A DNA stretch of 64,000 bases from contig JAGWLG010000009.1 in NCBI GenBank assembly GCA_028864975.1, positions 1 through 64,000 of the forward strand, read 5' to 3'. Source of the stretch: Thermoplasmata archaeon (GTDB lineage: Archaea > Thermoplasmatota > Thermoplasmata > Lutacidiplasmatales > UBA184). Positions 597-7,531 of the stretch are shown one piece after another. The number at the start of each line of letters is the position of its first letter. Position 1 is the first letter of the stretch. The translations under genes and the position numbers were made by a program. The notes beneath the pieces were generated by a model that was not told where the DNA came from, searched no databases, and saw only the letters and a program-made list of their open reading frames with translations.

Positions 597-667
597 GGAT
601 CGAACCGCCCCGCGATTCGAATACTCGATGGGCCGGCGCGGATTCGACCGCTTGTGGTGGTGGGGAC
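597..667 (-). repeat. att-like junction A: tRNA-Val 3'-end copy with L1 arm and degenerate R1 inverted repeat
   Basis: tgggccggcgcggattcga at 629 (18/19 identical to the tRNA 3' end), cgcttgtggtggtggggac at 649-667, and GGATCGAACCGC/GCGATTCGAATAC at 597-624. Confidence 0.85.
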
Positions 668-681
668 TGCGAGTCTAGCCT

Positions 682-1032
682 TCAGCGGCGCTTCCGCCCC
701 GGGAACCACTTGTCATACGTAGCGTGGTCCACGATCCGTAAGATGACCACGACTTTTCGTCCGTCAAACCGAACGATAGTGTAGAGGAGACGCCAGAAGC
801 CTGGAAGGTCTTCCACGAAGAGGTTCTCTAGGCCGTAGGCAAGACGGAACGCGGCAGGAACGAATTTCCCCCGGACCACCTCCCCGTGCACGGCATCCCG
901 AAGGAGGATCGGCTTCAGGTCCCGCAAACGCCGAAGGACCGAAGCGGCCTCCGGCCGGGGGTCCTCGAGCAATCGGTCGAAGTCCTTGGCCGCGTCCTCG
1001 TTCAGGCGGACCTCGTCCGCGGGGACACCCAT
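682..1032 (-). CDS. Putative RelE/ParE-like toxin, copy 1 (116 aa)
   Basis: MGVPADEVRLN...LENLFVEDLPGFWRLLYTI...ILRIVDHATYDKWF. The start overlaps the antitoxin stop (TGATG). RelE-like secondary pattern; 99/116 aa identical to 4673-5023. Confidence 0.7.
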   Translation of the reverse strand: MGVPADEVRLNEDAAKDFDRLLEDPRPEAASVLRRLRDLKPILLRDAVHGEVVRGKFVPAAFRLAYGLENLFVEDLPGFWRLLYTIVRFDGRKVVVILRIVDHATYDKWFPGRKRR

Positions 1033-1331
1033 CAGAGCGGCCGCCCAGCGCGGATCGACCGCACGAGGCCCTCGGATGCGTGGGGAACCCACAGAATCCC
1101 CTTGCTTCCTTCCACGATGCACCCTTCGTCTGCCAGGAACCCTAGCACAGCGTTGAGGGTCGGCCGGTTCGTGCTGTGCCCCCACTGGGCAAGTGTCTCG
1201 AGGAGAATGTTGCGGCTCACCGGCTCACCAGCCAGCCGTAGCGCCCCTCGAACGTACTCGATGAGCTCGAGGGTGGGGTTCGCTCCCTTGCGCGCGTGCT
1301 CGAGGCGGGGAGGGTGGGTGGCGATGGCCAT
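1032..1331 (-). CDS. Winged-helix protein, putative antitoxin, copy 1 (99 aa)
   Basis: MAIATHPPRLEH...TLNAVLGFLADEGCIVEGSKGILWV shows a wHTH-like helix/wing. It lies upstream of and is translationally coupled to the toxin; 94/99 aa identical to 5023-5322. Confidence 0.7.
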   Translation of the reverse strand: MAIATHPPRLEHARKGANPTLELIEYVRGALRLAGEPVSRNILLETLAQWGHSTNRPTLNAVLGFLADEGCIVEGSKGILWVPHASEGLVRSIRAGRPL

Positions 1332-1502
1332 CAGTGTATGCATACGTGGAGTCCATATGAACATACAGTCCCCATCAGGTTTTCCTTCCGCACGGGCCTC
1401 ACGGCGACGCTCATCCTCCGCTGCGACCGTCCCCTCTTGCAAACCGCGACTGGCGATCCGGCTCCTGGCTCATCGAGGTCAAAGACCTCGGTTTGGCACA
1501 AA

Positions 1503-1576
1503 GGGACTGGAACCGCGATGGCGGTTCGAATCCACATGGGCCGGGGCGGACCCACCAGCAAACGGGTTTGAGTCCC
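1503..1576 (-). repeat. att-like junction B
   Basis: tgggccggggcgga at 1537 (14 nt identical to the tRNA 3' end), inverted repeat GGACTGGAACCGC-gatg-GCGGTTCGAATCC at 1504-1533, and an inverted T-arm-like gggtttgagtccc at 1564-1576. Confidence 0.85.
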
Positions 1577-1627
1577 CTCAATTCGCCACGATACGACTCT
1601 TGGGGACCCCGCGTAGGACACGAATAG

Positions 1628-2377
1628 ATGTACCAGCGACCTCTACTCGGAGCGATGAACACGACCCTTGCCACGCAAGCCGTGGTGTTCGACCTCTTTC
1701 ACACCTTGGTCACGCCCGAGGCGGTCCACGCCAACGCATACCTGCGAACTTCCCGCATGGCTGCCGCTCTGCGCCTCGACGCTGCCGATTTCGAACGCTG
1801 GTGGGTGGATTCAAAGGACGAACGAAACCGAGCTCGGAGCCCGACAGTCGCCGATCGCATTGCTCAATATTGCACCAGAATAGGTCGCCCGAGGACCGTG
1901 GGAGATGTCGAAGCCGCGCTCTTCGCAGCGGACCGATACCACGACGTTGCCATTCAGTTCCCCCCCTCGGAAGTACTGGGGGCATTGGCCCAACTCCGGA
2001 AGAGAAAGCTCCAAGTTGGGATTCTGAGCAACGCGGATGAACACGAGGTCCGTGCGTGGCCGGACTCCCCGATCGCTCGTCTTGTGGACGCTGCTTCGAT
2101 CTCGGTCGACTCCGGGCTCGTGAAGCCCGAGCCAGCGGCTTATCGAGGGATCCTAGCTGCCCTTGGAGGCGTATCACCCTCTGCTACGATGTACGTCGGG
2201 GACGGCGAGAGCGGCGAACTCGTAGCCGCCAAGCAGCTGGGTTTTCAACCGGTGGTCTTCATGAGAGGATTCGTGACGGGGAACGGGTTTCAGACACCAG
2301 CCAATATCCAGCAACTCTCGACCCAGGCGGACCACACGATAGACCGCATCGATGAGACACTGCAGTATCTGCGGTAG
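1628..2377 (+). CDS. HAD-superfamily hydrolase (cassette cargo)
   Basis: Motifs VVFDLFHTL, LSN, KP and YVGDG; the start may be the ATG at 1655. Confidence 0.85.
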   Translation: MYQRPLLGAMNTTLATQAVVFDLFHTLVTPEAVHANAYLRTSRMAAALRLDAADFERWWVDSKDERNRARSPTVADRIAQYCTRIGRPRTVGDVEAALFAADRYHDVAIQFPPSEVLGALAQLRKRKLQVGILSNADEHEVRAWPDSPIARLVDAASISVDSGLVKPEPAAYRGILAALGGVSPSATMYVGDGESGELVAAKQLGFQPVVFMRGFVTGNGFQTPANIQQLSTQADHTIDRIDETLQYLR

Positions 2378-2395
2378 GGGCCCACGGGATCCCAC

Positions 2396-2443
2396 AATTC
2401 GAAGTGGGCCGGGGCGGATTCGAACGCTTGTGGTGGTGGGGAC
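2396..2443 (-). repeat. att-like junction C
   Basis: tgggccggggcggattcgaac at 2405 (21 nt identical to the tRNA 3' end), cgcttgtggtggtggggac at 2425-2443, and an aattcgaag arm. Confidence 0.9.
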
Positions 2444-2564
2444 CATTGAACGCGGTTCTTTCCACGGTGGAGGTTCACTCGGCCAGGGGTCCTCGTCCCG
2501 CTCTCCCGCCCATGGGCGGGCGAAAGGGCATAGCCCAACAGAGGAATAGAGGGTCTCGTGAGCT

Positions 2565-3548
2565 ATGGCCAGCACCAAGTCTCGAAGGAGTACTTCCTCG
2601 AAGCCGATCTCCAAACCCCCCGAGGAAGGCTGGGCTCTCGCCAGGACCCGACCTCTAAGGGGGCAGGTGGCCGTGGTCGCGGGAGGCACGCGGGGGGCTG
2701 GTCGCGCAATTGCCGTCTCGCTCGGCCTTGCTGGGGCAACGGTCTACGTAACGGGGAGGAGCGTTCGAGGTCACCCCGCGACGCCCGGGCGCCCCGAAAC
2801 CATCGACCAGACCGCAGAGATGATCCGGGCGCTAGGTGGCCGTGCCGTCGCGGTGCGCGTCGACCATACCGAGGAGAGCGAAGTGCGTCGATTCTTCGAA
2901 CAGGTCCGGCGAGAGCAACGGGGGAAACTGGACGTCCTCGTCAACGACATCTGGGGCGGAGAACCGCTGATCGAGTGGGGCAAGGCACCTTGGGAGATGA
3001 CCTGGCGAATGGGTCGCACGCTCATTGAGCGCGCGGTGTTCACGCACATTCTGACGAGCCGCTATGCCGTTCCCCTCATGGTGGCCCGCAAGTCTGGGAC
3101 GATCTTCGAGGTTACCGACGGGGCGCATTTGCAATATCGTGGCAGCTACTTCTACGATTTTGTCAAGTCCTCAGTGATTCGGATGGCCCTCGCGTACCAT
3201 GAGGAATTTGAGGAGGCGGGGCTGCGGAGAATGAGCACGATAGCGGTAACCCCAGGATACCTCCGTTCGGAGTACATGCTCGATCAATTCGGGGTCAGAG
3301 AGGAGAATTGGCGAGACGGAATTCCGCAAGCAGGCCCGGGGTATCGCCACTCCGAGACTCCGTACTACTTGGCGCGGGGCGTGGTGGCGCTTGCCGCGGA
3401 CCCTATGCGAAGAAGGTATTCCGGAAAGGTCGTCGGGAGCTGGACGCTCGGGCACAGGTACGGGTTCACCGATAGGGATGGGACCCAGCCGGACTGGGGG
3501 GCGTACTTCTATCCCAAGTACATGAAAGGCGTCGAGCCCACCTCCTGA
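2565..3548 (+). CDS. Short-chain dehydrogenase/reductase, DHRS1-like (cassette cargo)
   Basis: VAVVAGGTRGAG nucleotide-binding motif, LDVLVND, and the YYDFVK (YxxxK) catalytic motif. Confidence 0.9.
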   Translation: MASTKSRRSTSSKPISKPPEEGWALARTRPLRGQVAVVAGGTRGAGRAIAVSLGLAGATVYVTGRSVRGHPATPGRPETIDQTAEMIRALGGRAVAVRVDHTEESEVRRFFEQVRREQRGKLDVLVNDIWGGEPLIEWGKAPWEMTWRMGRTLIERAVFTHILTSRYAVPLMVARKSGTIFEVTDGAHLQYRGSYFYDFVKSSVIRMALAYHEEFEEAGLRRMSTIAVTPGYLRSEYMLDQFGVREENWRDGIPQAGPGYRHSETPYYLARGVVALAADPMRRRYSGKVVGSWTLGHRYGFTDRDGTQPDWGAYFYPKYMKGVEPTS

Positions 3549-3631
3549 AGGACCCACGCCCAGCATGCTCTCGGGCAGCGGCGGGTGTTCGATTCTCGTG
3601 TTACCGCTCGAGGGCGACCGCCACGACCGAG

Positions 3632-3677
3632 AATTCAAATGGGCCGGGGTGGGTTCACAACGTCCGGCGGTTCGAAT
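3632..3677 (-). repeat. att-like junction D (most degenerate)
   Basis: tgggccggggtgggttc at 3640 (15/17 identical to the tRNA 3' end), an aattcaaa arm like junction C, and cggcggttcgaat at 3665-3677, a 13-nt tRNA T-arm match in inverted orientation. Confidence 0.7.
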
Positions 3678-3746
3678 GCCGCATGGGTACATGGTGCCGC
3701 CTGCTACGCACAAAGTGTATCTTCAGTCCCTGCTGATCGCTGCGCG

Positions 3747-3965
3747 ATGAAGTACGAAGAGTTCCGCGACGCGATCACGATCCATCTTCGCTTGCACCGG
3801 CGGGGCGCCACGTGGGCAGACCTCAAGGAGGGTCTGGGCCTTCCCCAACGGACGGCCTGCCCTACGTGGGTCCGCCGGATGGAGGAGGAGGTCGGCCTCC
3901 GCCGGGAGCACGGACCCGATGGCATGATCTGGCAGATCCGTGCGAAGAAGGGGGGTCGCAGGTGA
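3747..3965 (+). CDS. Small HTH-like hypothetical protein (72 aa)
   Basis: MKYEEFRDAITIHLRLHRRGATWADLKEGLGLPQRTACPTWVRRMEEEVGL shows a helix-turn-helix/wing-like pattern; its stop overlaps the dinB-like GTG. Confidence 0.6.
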   Translation: MKYEEFRDAITIHLRLHRRGATWADLKEGLGLPQRTACPTWVRRMEEEVGLRREHGPDGMIWQIRAKKGGRR

Positions 3966-4474
3966 CCGAACTCGAGGCCATCCGGACTTTCTTTCGGTTC
4001 AACTCCCGCGTTCGCCAAAATTACTTGGACACGATCCTAAAGCTTCCCTCAGACGAGCGCCTGAAGGACCGTGGCGCCTCCTTCCCCTCCCTCCAGGAGG
4101 TGTTTTGCCACGTGCTCGATGGCATCCGCTGGTGGGTAGAGTACGTTCCGCAGGATCGTGCGGCGGACGCGAATCAGCTCCCCGCTCGCGAACTCTCGCC
4201 GGAGCAACTCCGCGCAGAGACGGAGAAGGCCGACCGAATGGCGTTGGACTACGTCACCCATCTGACCGAGGCGGACATGACGAAGGACATGGTCTGTCAC
4301 TTTCCCGGTGATGACGGCCCACAGGAAGCACGCTTCCCGATCAAGGATGTCCTCTGGCATTTGGTCGAGGAGGAACTCCAGCACCGGGGCGAGCTCAATG
4401 CCCTCCTCTGGCAGATAGACGTGGAACCCCCCATCGCGAAAGTGGAGGATTGGAACGCATCGAAGGAGAAGTGA
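3962..4474 (+). CDS. DinB/YfiT family protein (170 aa)
   Basis: His motifs VFCHVL and LWHLVEEELQHRGELNALLWQ, typical of the DinB four-helix bundle. Confidence 0.85.
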   Translation: MTELEAIRTFFRFNSRVRQNYLDTILKLPSDERLKDRGASFPSLQEVFCHVLDGIRWWVEYVPQDRAADANQLPARELSPEQLRAETEKADRMALDYVTHLTEADMTKDMVCHFPGDDGPQEARFPIKDVLWHLVEEELQHRGELNALLWQIDVEPPIAKVEDWNASKEK

Positions 4475-4527
4475 ACGCCAACGGAGGATGCTTTCTAGGA
4501 GTCCTCCTGGTCTCGTCGTCTCGAGAT

Positions 4528-4599
4528 GGACTCGAACCGTCCTACGGTTCGAATCCTCCATGGGCCGGGGCGGATTCGGACGCTTGTGGTGGTGGGGAC
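4528..4599 (-). repeat. att-like junction E (best-preserved full unit)
   Basis: GGACTCGAACCGT-cct-ACGGTTCGAATCC (12/13 paired), tcca, tgggccggggcggattcg (18 nt identical to the tRNA 3' end), and cgcttgtggtggtggggac at 4581-4599. Confidence 0.9.
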
Positions 4600-4672
4600 A
4601 GCCAACCCCTGCCATCCGGTACCGGCATGGCACTCCCAGGCGGGAACGCGGGGCTTGAAGGGCGCGAGGAGG

Positions 4673-5023
4673 TCAGTGACGCTTTCGTCCCGGGAACCAC
4701 TTATCGTAGGTGGCATGGTCCACGATCCGAAGGATAAGCACGACCTTTCGTCCGTCGAATCGAACGATGGTATAGAGGAGGCGCCAGTAGCTTGGAAGGT
4801 CCTCCACGAAGAGGTTCTCCAGGTCGTAGGAAAGGCGGAGCGAGGAGGGGATGAATTTCCCACGTACGACCTCCCCGTGCAATGCATCTCGAAGGAGGAT
4901 CGGTTTCAGGTCCCGCACTCGCCGAAGGACCGATGCGGCCTCCGGCCGCGTATCTTCGACCAAGCGGTCGAAATCCCTAGTCCCATCCTCGTTCAGGCGG
5001 ACCTCGTCCGCAGGAACCCCCAT
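4673..5023 (-). CDS. Putative RelE/ParE-like toxin, copy 2 (116 aa)
   Basis: Paralog of 682-1032 with the same TGATG coupling. Confidence 0.7.
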   Translation of the reverse strand: MGVPADEVRLNEDGTRDFDRLVEDTRPEAASVLRRVRDLKPILLRDALHGEVVRGKFIPSSLRLSYDLENLFVEDLPSYWRLLYTIVRFDGRKVVLILRIVDHATYDKWFPGRKRH

Positions 5024-5322
5024 CAGAGCGACCGCCCCGCACGGATTGACCGCGCGAGGCCTTCCGAAGCCTGGGGGACCCACAGGATTCCCTTGCTCCC
5101 TTCGACGATGCACCCCTCGTCCGCCAGGAAACCCAGTACTGCGTTGAGGGTCGGCCGGTTCGTGCTGTGACCCCAATGGGCGAGTGTTTCGAGGAGAATG
5201 TTCCGGCTCACGGGCTCACCGGCCAGCCGCAGTGCTCCCCGAACGTACTCGATCATCTCGAGGGTGGGATTCGCACCCTTCCGGGCGTGCTCGAGGCGGG
5301 GAGGGTGGGTCGCAATGGCCAT
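5023..5322 (-). CDS. Winged-helix protein, putative antitoxin, copy 2 (99 aa)
   Basis: Paralog of 1032-1331; TATA-like TTTATA about 25 nt upstream on the minus strand (probably leaderless). Confidence 0.7.
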   Translation of the reverse strand: MAIATHPPRLEHARKGANPTLEMIEYVRGALRLAGEPVSRNILLETLAHWGHSTNRPTLNAVLGFLADEGCIVEGSKGILWVPQASEGLARSIRAGRSL

Positions 5323-5437
5323 CAGTGTATGTATGCGTAGAGCCCCTATAAACGTATACCCCCATGGAGGTCGTCTTCCCTAAGGGACCCTAGGCTCCCT
5401 GCACCTCGCGGGAGTTGCCCCTCTCGGTGGGTGTGAC

Positions 5438-5495
5438 GGGACTCGACCCCCCCCGGTTTCGAATCCTCCATGGGCCGGGGCGGATTCGAACCGCC
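5438..5495 (-). repeat. att-like junction F: intact tRNA 3' end followed by the R1 arm
   Basis: On the minus strand the tRNA end CCGGCCCA is followed by TGGAGGATTCGAAACC-G8-TCGAGTCCC, the same arm as at junctions A, B and E. Confidence 0.85.
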
Positions 5496-5543
5496 GATCT
5501 GCGCGTTGTAAGCGCGCCGTCATCACCCCTAGACCACCGGCCC
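5471..5543 (-). tRNA. tRNA-Val (TAC)
   Basis: GGGCCGGTGGTCTAGGGGTGATGACGGCGCGCTTACAACGCGCAGATCGGCGGTTCGAATCCGCCCCGGCCCA folds as a cloverleaf; anticodon loop CTTACAA; no encoded CCA. Confidence 0.97.
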
Positions 5544-5573: not shown

Positions 5574-7442
5574 TCAACCGACCGGCGGAGCCTCGGGGGG
5601 AGATGGCACGGGTGGGGGGGCGGTGCTCCGTGTCCGCTCCTCACCGTGCGCTCGATGTCGGACCTTAACGACGAGACCCCGGGGAAGCCGCCCCATCCAT
5701 GGCCCCGGGACGCGGGCCTCTCCGACACCGAGAACCTCTCCGTTCCGAAGGAGGAGCACCTCGTCTCCCCGACGGAGCGCCGGGTCCCCCCGCTCTACCC
5801 CTGGGGCGAAGAGATCCCCCCGGAGCTCGACACCCCCCCGGACCTCGACCCGGTACCCGTCGGCGGCGCTCACGATCTTGCGAGCCCCCGGCACGGTCAA
5901 GCGCCAGAGCCCGGTCTCCTCCTTCCAGGTCGCGAGGTCCTGGTGGTCCGTGGAGATCAACCGCTGGAACCAGGGCCGTCCCATGAGCCGTACCTCCCCC
6001 TCGAACAGCCGGTCCGCGATGGTCGGCCCGAACTGGACCTGCGCCAGCGCCCGGAGCTCCTCGCGCACCCGCGCGAGCGGGCCCCCGGCCGCGGCGCGTT
6101 CCCTCGACAAGGCCAAGCGCCTCATCTCCGACGACAGGGCGGAGAGCGACGCGGAGGACGTCGTCGCGCTACCCTCGACCGTCCAGGCCACCTTCTCGGG
6201 GGGAAGGAGGTCCTTCAACCAGGCGTACTCCTCGCTTGGTAGGTGGGCGACGACCGCGCGATATCCTCCCGTTCTCAACAGATGCTGGAGCGCATCGCGC
6301 ACCCAGCGCCGCTCATCCTCGTCCCAGGCCCCGGTGACCGGGATGTCGTAGTTCCGGGCCGGGTAGACCGCTTCGAGCTCCCTCGGGACCAGGCCCAGGG
6401 GGGAGGTCACCGATGCCCAGTGGACACCCAGCCCCGGGGGCAGGCCCTCGAGCGAGCGCGCGATGCGCCGGTGGGTGGGCGAAGACGCGTACGGTTTGGT
6501 CTTCGAACAGGGGACCAGCAGGAGGGTCCGTTTGGAAGAGGGGGGACGGTACCGCTCCAGGAACCGTTGTCGGAAGCGTTCGACCTCGGGGCGGCGCAAA
6601 GCCTCCTTGGTCGTGTACGGGCGGACACCGGCCCCGGTCACGGGGGCATGAATCTCCTGGAACGGCGCCCCAAGGGTATCGTAGTAGCGCAGGAGCTCCC
6701 CACGGCAAGGCTCCGGGACCAGACGGGCCTCGACCAGTTCGCGAAGCCGACCTGCACCTGCGAAACGTCGCACCCGAGCAAGCTCGTCGAGGTACTCCTG
6801 TTCCACGGCGGCAGCCCGCTGGAGTAACGGGGGGCGTGCCCGCGCCGTGTCAGCCCCGTCCAGGTCCTCGGCATCCGCCGAGAGCTCTCTCCCTGCACCA
6901 GCGGCGAGAAGGCCCTGGGTCGTGTCCACTAGGTCGATCCCCATGGCGAAGAGCAACGAGAGCCTGCCGGGAGTAGCGACCCGAGGGGCCCAGAGCATGG
7001 GGGCAGGCCCCGCGGCCTCCCTCAGAGCGATCGCTCCTTTGACGAAACCCTCGGTATCGGTGAAAGTGGCACGGGCGTTCATCCAGACGACAAGGTCCCA
7101 CGGCTCCTCCCGAAGTGCCTGGGAGGTGGGTACGGAGAGCGGGGTCCTCACGCCGAGCACCCGAGGGGCCAGGCGCTGACCTGGCCCGGACGTCCCGGAG
7201 ACCTCAGGGACCGCGACCTCGACCGCCAGTTCGAGGACCCTCTCCCCTTGCCTCCACCGGAGGGCTCTCCGCATCGGGCCACCCGACCCTCCCTCCTCGA
7301 GGACCGCAACCCCGGGCTCCAGCGTCCGTTCCGCCGTTCCGCGCGGAGTGGACCTGAGCACGCCCGGAAGCGTGAGCTGCAGCTCGCCTACAGTGCCCTC
7401 CCCCACGAGGGTGGCCCCGTCGAGCCGGGAGCAGGAGCGCAT
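5574..7442 (-). CDS. arcS: Archaeosine synthase subunit alpha (TGT-like domain + DUF5591-type domain + PUA)
   Basis: LLLVPCSKTKPYASSPTH and SVTSPLGLVPRELEAVYPARNYDIPVTG motifs; C-terminal PUA (GDLFAPGV...GDEV). Confidence 0.9.
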   Translation of the reverse strand: MRSCSRLDGATLVGEGTVGELQLTLPGVLRSTPRGTAERTLEPGVAVLEEGGSGGPMRRALRWRQGERVLELAVEVAVPEVSGTSGPGQRLAPRVLGVRTPLSVPTSQALREEPWDLVVWMNARATFTDTEGFVKGAIALREAAGPAPMLWAPRVATPGRLSLLFAMGIDLVDTTQGLLAAGAGRELSADAEDLDGADTARARPPLLQRAAAVEQEYLDELARVRRFAGAGRLRELVEARLVPEPCRGELLRYYDTLGAPFQEIHAPVTGAGVRPYTTKEALRRPEVERFRQRFLERYRPPSSKRTLLLVPCSKTKPYASSPTHRRIARSLEGLPPGLGVHWASVTSPLGLVPRELEAVYPARNYDIPVTGAWDEDERRWVRDALQHLLRTGGYRAVVAHLPSEEYAWLKDLLPPEKVAWTVEGSATTSSASLSALSSEMRRLALSRERAAAGGPLARVREELRALAQVQFGPTIADRLFEGEVRLMGRPWFQRLISTDHQDLATWKEETGLWRLTVPGARKIVSAADGYRVEVRGGVELRGDLFAPGVERGDPALRRGDEVLLLRNGEVLGVGEARVPGPWMGRLPRGLVVKVRHRAHGEERTRSTAPPPVPSPPEAPPVG

Positions 7443-7531
7443 GGGCACCGTGGAGCCCAAGGGAGCTTGAAGCTCGCCCGGGGGCGCCGCGTCCCCCGCG
7501 GCCGTCGGCGGCGGCCGGCTGGACGCCCCGT

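Follow-up and report, generated by a model that had tools for sequence, protein, structure and literature searches.

Directly behind the tRNA-Val(TAC) gene of a Thermoplasmata archaeon, and again at partial copies of its 3′ end, lies an imperfect palindrome, here termed H, whose arms resemble the tRNA T-arm. Is this repeat a signal of the tRNA, a DNA hairpin, or a site that is read by a protein? We addressed this question in the first 64 kb of contig C6 (GenBank JAGWLG010000009.1; the window) of genome G000 (GCA_028864975.1; a 3.6-Mb assembly with 67% G+C, 89.6% complete) and in related genomes. All results are read from the sequence of metagenome-assembled genomes (MAGs), the assemblies compared are 85–90% complete, and the search patterns with which joints were detected introduce some bias into the sample. 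H is most likely the protein docking site of a recombination system rather than folded DNA or a mimic of the dif site. Of the two possibilities offered by an earlier note on this DNA, a recombinase binding site or a structural single-stranded DNA substrate, the former survives while the latter fails.

Joints in the array behind tRNA-Val(TAC)

The last 13–15 nt of the tRNA recur toward lower coordinates at 4561, ~3640, 2405, 1537, and 629. Genes for tRNAs were called with ARAGORN and Rfam, and core copies were detected by a junction catalogue and a 21-mer search for the tRNA 3′ end, which returned four matches against 0.01 expected. The tRNA 3′ end is present in six direct copies that bound five cassettes of 0.9–1.2 kb each, and tRNA-Val is intact. 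As in attachment (att) sites within tRNA genes, direct repeats of a tRNA 3′ segment bound the inserts and the tRNA is kept. The anchor and the joints are as follows (z compares the single-stranded DNA folds of both strands with 200 dinucleotide shuffles):

5471–5543, minus strand: tRNA-Val(TAC), anchor of the array (attL side), whose T-arm is repeat R1 (ARAGORN; Rfam tRNA, 67.5 bits)
5438–5466: H module at junction F, 4 nt past the tRNA 3′ end, with R2 (10/14) and a degenerate R3 (10/11); z +0.4/−0.2
4561–4599, minus strand: junction E, a 13-nt copy of the tRNA 3′ end (4561–4573) with a type-1 P arm (4574–4599) (21-mer search; junction catalogue)
4528–4556: H module at E, 13-nt arms, 12/13 paired, 3-nt centre; z −4.2/−4.4
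3639–3690, minus strand: junction D, a compound joint in which a core copy (3639–3652) is followed by H in its second arrangement, 4 nt, and another, degenerate remnant of the core (sequence; junction catalogue)
2405–2443, minus strand: junction C, core copy with a type-1 P arm and without H beside it (21-mer search; junction catalogue; fold)
1537–1577, minus strand: junction B, core copy (1537–1549) with a type-2 P arm (junction catalogue)
1504–1533: H module at B, inner arm identical at 14/14 positions to the reverse complement of the tRNA T-arm; z −3.6/−3.1
629–667, minus strand: junction A, core copy (one mismatch) with a type-1 P arm (21-mer search; junction catalogue)
597–625: H module at A, a weaker copy; z about −2.6

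On the tRNA strand, a joint reads P arm, core (the last 13–15 nt of the tRNA), 4 nt, inner arm R2, a centre of 1–4 nt, and outer arm R3. Reverse-complementing the 14 nt at the 5′ side of the T-arm gives R2. R3 resembles the T-arm in direct orientation but has TTCGAGT in its loop instead of the TTCGAAT of the T-arm, which accounts for the mismatch at position 4 of the palindrome. In a second arrangement, H sits on the opposite side of the core and takes the T-arm of the partial tRNA copy as its direct arm. At junction D, H (3653–3679) comprises a pseudo T-arm (3653–3662), the centre, and an inverted T-arm (3666–3679), a layout that is repeated in genomes G124, G112, and G029 and at the metagenome locus L068. 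Cassettes with H at both ends occur here (cassette 2) as well as in G124 and G029, and one tRNA-Leu locus carries H, core, 4 nt, and H in one piece. The full site, as found on some cassettes, is H-core-H, a dyad of ~77 bp in which two palindromes enclose the core.

The type-2 left arm (1550–1577) is the type-1 arm (2418–2443 and 4574–4599) inverted, with TCC beside the core in both, which suggests a site-specific inversion of a 28-nt segment. Directly after the core, some cassettes of G007, G008, and G009 begin with a different element (L038:10184–10225, L039:8520–8562, L057:7135–7179), in which a TTTATA box precedes an AT-rich palindrome with TAGGTC...GACCTA at its centre. This element may be a promoter or operator of the cargo rather than a recombination arm.

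Conservation of the T-arm copies and their occurrence at different tRNAs

Matches to the T-arm were scored for 16 joints from 10 genomes. R2 agrees with the T-arm complement at 11 or more of 14 positions (≥11/14) in 13 of these joints and at all 14 positions in two (junction B and G128); the discriminator base and the start of R2 are 4 nt apart in 14 joints, against 3 nt in the remaining two. R3 is recognizable in only eight of the 16; the inner arm is better kept than the outer one. R1 and R2 thus make up a second inverted pair, which is better preserved; its 14-nt arms keep a constant distance of 15 nt, and its centre falls on the acceptor 3′ strand. If 13-nt arms around a 7-nt core segment are read instead, this pair would have the usual geometry of a tyrosine recombinase core site.

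Across the tRNA-Val(TAC) loci of the family, R2 directly follows the tRNA in eight genomes, while sixteen have unrelated trailers, two of which contain an ordinary hairpin followed by a T-run. Since most of the related genomes sampled have such unrelated trailers, H is borne by the element; it arrives with the inserts and does not belong to the tRNA. In other Thermoplasmata MAGs, H directly adjoins the acceptor 3′ strands of two further tRNAs, one of which is tRNA-Leu(CAG). These modules keep the sequence of the inner arm and a centre that is mostly GCCGGGC or its complement, and their direct arm is the T-arm of the partial copy. By this comparison, H is portable between tRNAs and conserved across genera. 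The earlier assignment of the repeat to the recombination joints of mobile cassettes is thereby borne out, as H is absent at unoccupied tRNA-Val genes, conserved across genera at a fixed offset, and combined with different tRNAs.

Type-1 arm and core are identical at 39 of 40 positions between G000 and G007; the genes for the archaeosine tRNA-guanine transglycosylase (ArcTGT), which adjoins the head of the tRNA-Val array in the window (5574–7460), are only 67% identical at the DNA level. Cassette order and content vary among four species of the genus, and a cassette for a HAD hydrolase has the same arm types in G000 and G007 but different neighbours. No orthologous pair of an empty and an occupied site could be aligned at the DNA level. 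In public collections, the type-1 arm was found in G007 only, and no viral contig with the tRNA-Val core or with core plus R2 was found. Most pattern matches in metagenomes and genome collections were due to chance (bacterial tRNA clusters, coding DNA).

Within the G000 contigs, H is present only in the array (contigs C6 and C36) and at one other site, C83:17657–17684, where 11-nt arms with 8/11 complementary positions flank a 6-nt gap; no tRNA 3′ copy was seen beside this module. Another isolated joint, L052 (contig C46, ~36152 in contig coordinates), consists of a lone type-2 arm with a degenerate tRNA-Val core, far from any tRNA-Val. Its flanking genes look like toxin–antitoxin-like units, and the joint may be ectopic or a relic. 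Single insertions of 1–3 kb were also observed at tRNA-Met, two tRNA-Gln, and tRNA-Val(GAC) genes of G000 (C20:14847–16455, C32:51852–52874, C91:1018–2107, C101:42109–45397). They are bounded by a second copy of the last 14 nt of the tRNA and are without H; they have other arms, of which a conserved right arm is shared by both Gln sites. No integrase was detected on these four contigs.

Pairing of the two arms and comparison with dif

The coordinates and sequences assigned to the repeat in the earlier note are correct, including A (597–625), F (5438–5466), and the 12/13 paired arms with a 3-nt centre at E. Its count of four junctions is upheld in part: E and B are good and A is weak, whereas F is degenerate and folds within chance. 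The fold at E reaches −11.5 and −12.5 kcal/mol on the two strands, and none of the 200 shuffles was as good (0/200). The equivalent flanks of junctions C and D contain no hairpin. At B, 11/13 positions are paired, with the C/A mismatch at position 4 and a G/G mismatch at position 6. The retention of the former mismatch in B and E is as described before, but it represents essentially one event, and the G/G mismatch comes on top of it at B.

The innermost pair is T-A in E and C-G in B and A, which had been taken as covariation. The pair does differ in this way; however, the difference is likewise essentially one event, and neither of two larger samples contains an excess of pairing. In the alignment of 16 joints, 77.8% of cells pair compared to 77.1% in column shuffles, and double changes occur in three cells, a number that is reached in 104/500 shuffles. 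In 27 curated modules, Watson–Crick pairing amounts to 77.1% versus 75.8 ± 1.0%, and 277 of 2000 shuffles are as high. The most variable pair of these 27, position 6, is C·G in 16 modules, T·A in one, T·G in four, and C·A in four; half-changed pairs outnumber compensated ones 8 to 1, which indicates that the arms vary independently. Mismatches have no strand bias (18 G·T versus 14 A·C). About five isolated compensated pairs occur, including the T-A/C-G change, which we regard as anecdotal. The arms of H thus appear conserved as sequence, and structural covariation is unsupported by either sample. Recognition of the sequence of each arm would fit this independent, uncompensated variation better than recognition of a fold. 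This outcome also goes against the proposed structural single-stranded substrate, for which the lack of covariation in a larger alignment had been named as a refuting observation.

Similar to Xer/dif sites (PMC2958812), H permits a reading in which inverted arms of 11 nt flank a gap of 6–8 nt, and this reading, given in the earlier note, holds for the copies of the window. In the wider family, however, the “spacer” is itself palindromic, mostly GCCGGGC or its complement, and the real arms therefore measure 13–14 nt around a centre of 1–4 nt. To compare H with a dif site of the same family, we scanned for ATAA-N6-TTAT, the core of known dif sites, and obtained one strong candidate in G000 (contig C32, 98375–98396, within a palindrome at 98372–98399). 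This palindrome, CCGTATAA-CTGCTG-TTATACGG, is single-copy, and in nearly all family genomes searched its arms are conserved while the spacer varies. Its consensus and conservation make it a good candidate for this family's XerA dif site. The arms of H are unrelated to those of the candidate (CCGTATAA-N6-TTATACGG) and its centre is palindromic and only 1–4 nt long, so that H is rejected as a dif mimic and the suggested dif-like geometry is not retained.

Cassettes, candidate enzymes, and the reading of the repeat

The five cassettes of the window, numbered from the tRNA outward, contain the following cargo (annotation by Pfam):

4673–5322, minus strand: cassette 1, two small open reading frames (ORFs) without a Pfam family; an 84% identical copy lies at 682–1340
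3750–4474, plus strand: cassette 2, a small ORF and a DinB-family protein (Pfam), with H at both ends (E and D)
2565–3548, plus strand: cassette 3, a short-chain dehydrogenase (Pfam)
1628–2377, plus strand: cassette 4, a HAD hydrolase (Pfam; alignment with G007)
682–1340, minus strand: cassette 5, the second copy of the two-ORF unit (comparison with cassette 1)

The two copies of the two-ORF unit have genes and joint modules in common, and the DNA in between is unalignable. The G+C content at third codon positions is 0.66–0.74 in the cassettes compared to 0.82 in the adjacent host gene. Contig C6 begins within the array, and the 5.4-kb contig C36 holds three further joints of the same kind. 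On C36, a cassette is split by an insert of ~1.6 kb (L051 3640–5275) that resembles an insertion sequence (IS), with terminal inverted repeats and a 370-aa ORF without a Pfam family; its uninterrupted flank resembles positions 118–160 of the window (noted at 110–160). This IS-like repeat may be the cause of the assembly break inside the array. At the distal end of C36 (L051:2–904, minus strand), a partial ORF of 301 aa has no Pfam match at E<0.01 and reads like the N-terminal part of a TnpB/OrfB-type protein. Several predicted tRNA genes of G000 are 80–97 nt long, as expected for genes with introns; like the ArcTGT gene, this marks the DNA as archaeal.

None of the cassette ORFs matches a recombinase in Pfam, so the cognate integrase of a tRNA att site is missing from the array. 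The genome encodes seven tyrosine recombinases, none of them near the array, and a tblastn search with its integrases returned no relevant homologue at any of the array, H, and tRNA-Val loci, which number more than 60. Serine recombinases are sporadic, an integrase of the SSV type is absent, and an integrase-bearing array on contig C73 is without T-arm modules. Large ORFs beside the joints of the metagenome loci L068 and L074 were considered as recombinases and discarded, as their translations are secreted proteins rich in Ser/Thr. Plasmids and viruses are often missing from MAGs. Since they are, and since the assemblies are 85–90% complete, a helper element that supplies the enzyme is possible; the genomes, viral contigs, and metagenome matches yielded none with an integrase and a matching att site.

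We consider it somewhat probable that H is part of the attachment site of small, recombinase-less cassettes that are serially inserted at tRNA 3′ ends, with the T-arm copies serving as recombinase sites on double-stranded DNA. In such a mechanism, a recombinase supplied in trans would bind the T-arm copies sequence-specifically on the duplex. The crossover would lie in the shared acceptor-strand segment, enclosed by R1 and R2 as the inner inverted pair, with R3 and the outer arm as accessory sites. Exchange would take place within the 13–15-nt identity block that is shared by every joint type, with new cassettes arriving at the intact tRNA and displacing the older ones outward. A crossover in the acceptor strand fits all arm types, whereas one in the T-loop is compatible with type-1 and H-core joints, though not with those of type 2; exchange in the shared tRNA core, as presumed in the earlier note, agrees with the identity block common to all junction types. 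Several observations weigh against this mechanism. The copy beside the live tRNA is the most degenerate of the window, the three nucleotides between core and R2 differ among joints, which would be odd inside an inner recombinase arm, and about half of the joints carry other, unrelated right arms, so that H is not obligatory. Moreover, no circular or empty-site form was seen, no recombinase lies in or beside any array or H locus examined, and the 89%-complete G007, which has an eight-joint array, encodes only a tyrosine recombinase of the XerA type, while none was detected in G124.

Several other explanations account for part of these data. Stable hairpins at E and B, a T·G or C·A mismatch at position 4 in 14 of the 27 modules, a self-complementary centre that lets the stem reach 13–14 bp, and the five isolated compensated pairs would all suit an H that acts as a folded single strand, as in integron attC sites or HUH-type hairpin ends, with the R2:R3 stem rebuilding the T-arm duplex and the position-4 mismatch marking the strand. 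We regard this as unlikely, because pairing equals that of shuffles in both alignments, half-changed pairs prevail at position 6, and the mismatches lack a strand bias. Further, the outer arm is often lost where the inner arm is kept, no IntI-like integrase lies beside any array, and five genomes contain no Y1 HUH transposase (Y1_Tnp). A role of the palindrome in the tRNA-Val precursor, either as a 3′ processing or termination hairpin or through sequestration of R2 from the T-arm by R3, appears highly improbable to us. It would agree with the start of H 4 nt past the discriminator base, with the full complementarity of R2 to the T-arm, which could misfold the precursor unless R2 is paired with R3, and with the commonest mismatch, T·G on the tRNA strand, which is compatible with G·U pairing. 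However, most relatives have no H after tRNA-Val, the copy at the live tRNA folds no better than chance, partial tRNA copies can have H upstream, H also occurs at joints that are remote from tRNA genes, and G·T is not in excess over A·C. Unlike a trailer hairpin or terminator, such as the hairpin with T-run in two relatives, H is absent in sixteen of the relatives sampled and is followed by no T-run; since these sixteen trailers are unrelated and the T-run is missing, termination or processing is not the main explanation.

The spacing of the joints allows yet another interpretation, in which the cassettes are transposon-like units, the core of ~15 nt is a target-site duplication, and R2 together with the T-arm copy at the other end (R1′) forms terminal inverted repeats; a casposase-like enzyme, or another one that makes staggered cuts, would act at the copy nearest the tRNA. 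The 15 nt between R1 and R2 match the 14–15-nt duplications of casposons, R2 and R1′ are mutually inverted copies, and casposons target tRNA 3′ ends, form tandems, and mobilize enzyme-less mini-elements in trans (PMC10359463). An origin of this kind is nevertheless improbable, as the final three of these 15 nt differ from joint to joint, R2 has no inverted counterpart in type-2 and other P arms, the inverted ends comprise only about 8–12 nt, and Cas1 was not found in G000, G124, and G029. Finally, H could be functionless now, a scar or palindromic by-product of T-arm joining in arrays that are shuffled by homologous recombination between joint sequences. The lack of an enzyme, the compound or rearranged joints (junction D, the inverted type-2 arm, and, in G128 and G007, an H with a degenerate core behind it), and a 6-nt palindrome in the T-loop that makes the orientation ambiguous point in this direction. 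We still think it quite improbable, since sequence, offset, and centre of the module are conserved between genera and between different tRNA targets, in contrast to the unalignable non-coding DNA around it, and the joint arms are far better conserved than the neighbouring genes.

Taken as an attachment site for cassettes at tRNA genes, H resembles several known systems in part. Archaeal tyrosine integrases use att sites in tRNA genes, with sublocations in the T-loop and at the 3′ end (PMC8371274). As in these sites, direct tRNA 3′ repeats flank the inserts, element DNA rebuilds the tRNA, and inverted elements surround a short identical core; here, in contrast, the cassettes are without an integrase, the arms are whole T-arm palindromes on one or both sides of the core, and one arm module serves several tRNAs. 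Serial insertion that pushes older units outward and leaves partial tRNA repeats, with integrase-less units between att sites, is shared with the tandem accretion of cis-mobilizable elements (CIMEs) and with tycheposon islands (bioRxiv 10.1101/2020.12.28.424599). Those systems have cognate integrases identifiable in the same genomes or elements, whereas none is linked to the units described here, which are single-gene-sized and share a palindromic arm. Like integron attC sites and integrase-less attC clusters, the array has small promiscuous cassettes (toxin–antitoxin-like units, small enzymes), each with an imperfect palindrome, and a fixed entry anchor. In attC sites, the structure is conserved instead of the sequence and covariation is seen, whereas H keeps its sequence and lacks covariation; IntI and attI are missing, and the head of the array is tRNA-Val beside the ArcTGT gene. 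Casposons and mini-casposons (PMC10359463) have in common with it the target at the tRNA 3′ end, repeats of 14–15 nt, inverted ends, tandem insertion, and, as proposed here, mobilization in trans, but the cassette ends are short and heterogeneous and Cas1 was not found in three of the five genomes searched. Unlike the ends of IS200/IS605 elements or repetitive extragenic palindromes, H is confined to the array instead of dispersed, and no Y1 transposase accompanies it in the five genomes. Our literature search returned no paper that describes T-arm palindromes as cassette joints.

One of the main ways in which these archaea of soil and sediment acquire genes appears to be through cassette arrays that lack an integrase and sit at tRNA genes. 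How such arrays are assembled is not explained by anything they contain, and the conserved, portable T-arm palindrome defines a motif for the search for the enzyme. As a tentative and rather doubtful extension, H-core-H might be the site of an integron-like cassette-capture system on tRNA genes, in which a distantly encoded, T-arm-reading recombinase, either undescribed or XerA on a second site, stacks single-gene cassettes behind many tRNAs in this family of Thermoplasmata. If the enzyme reads the DNA of the T-arm, this would explain how one system serves many tRNA genes, and the arrays would represent an archaeal counterpart to integrons, tycheposons, and casposons.

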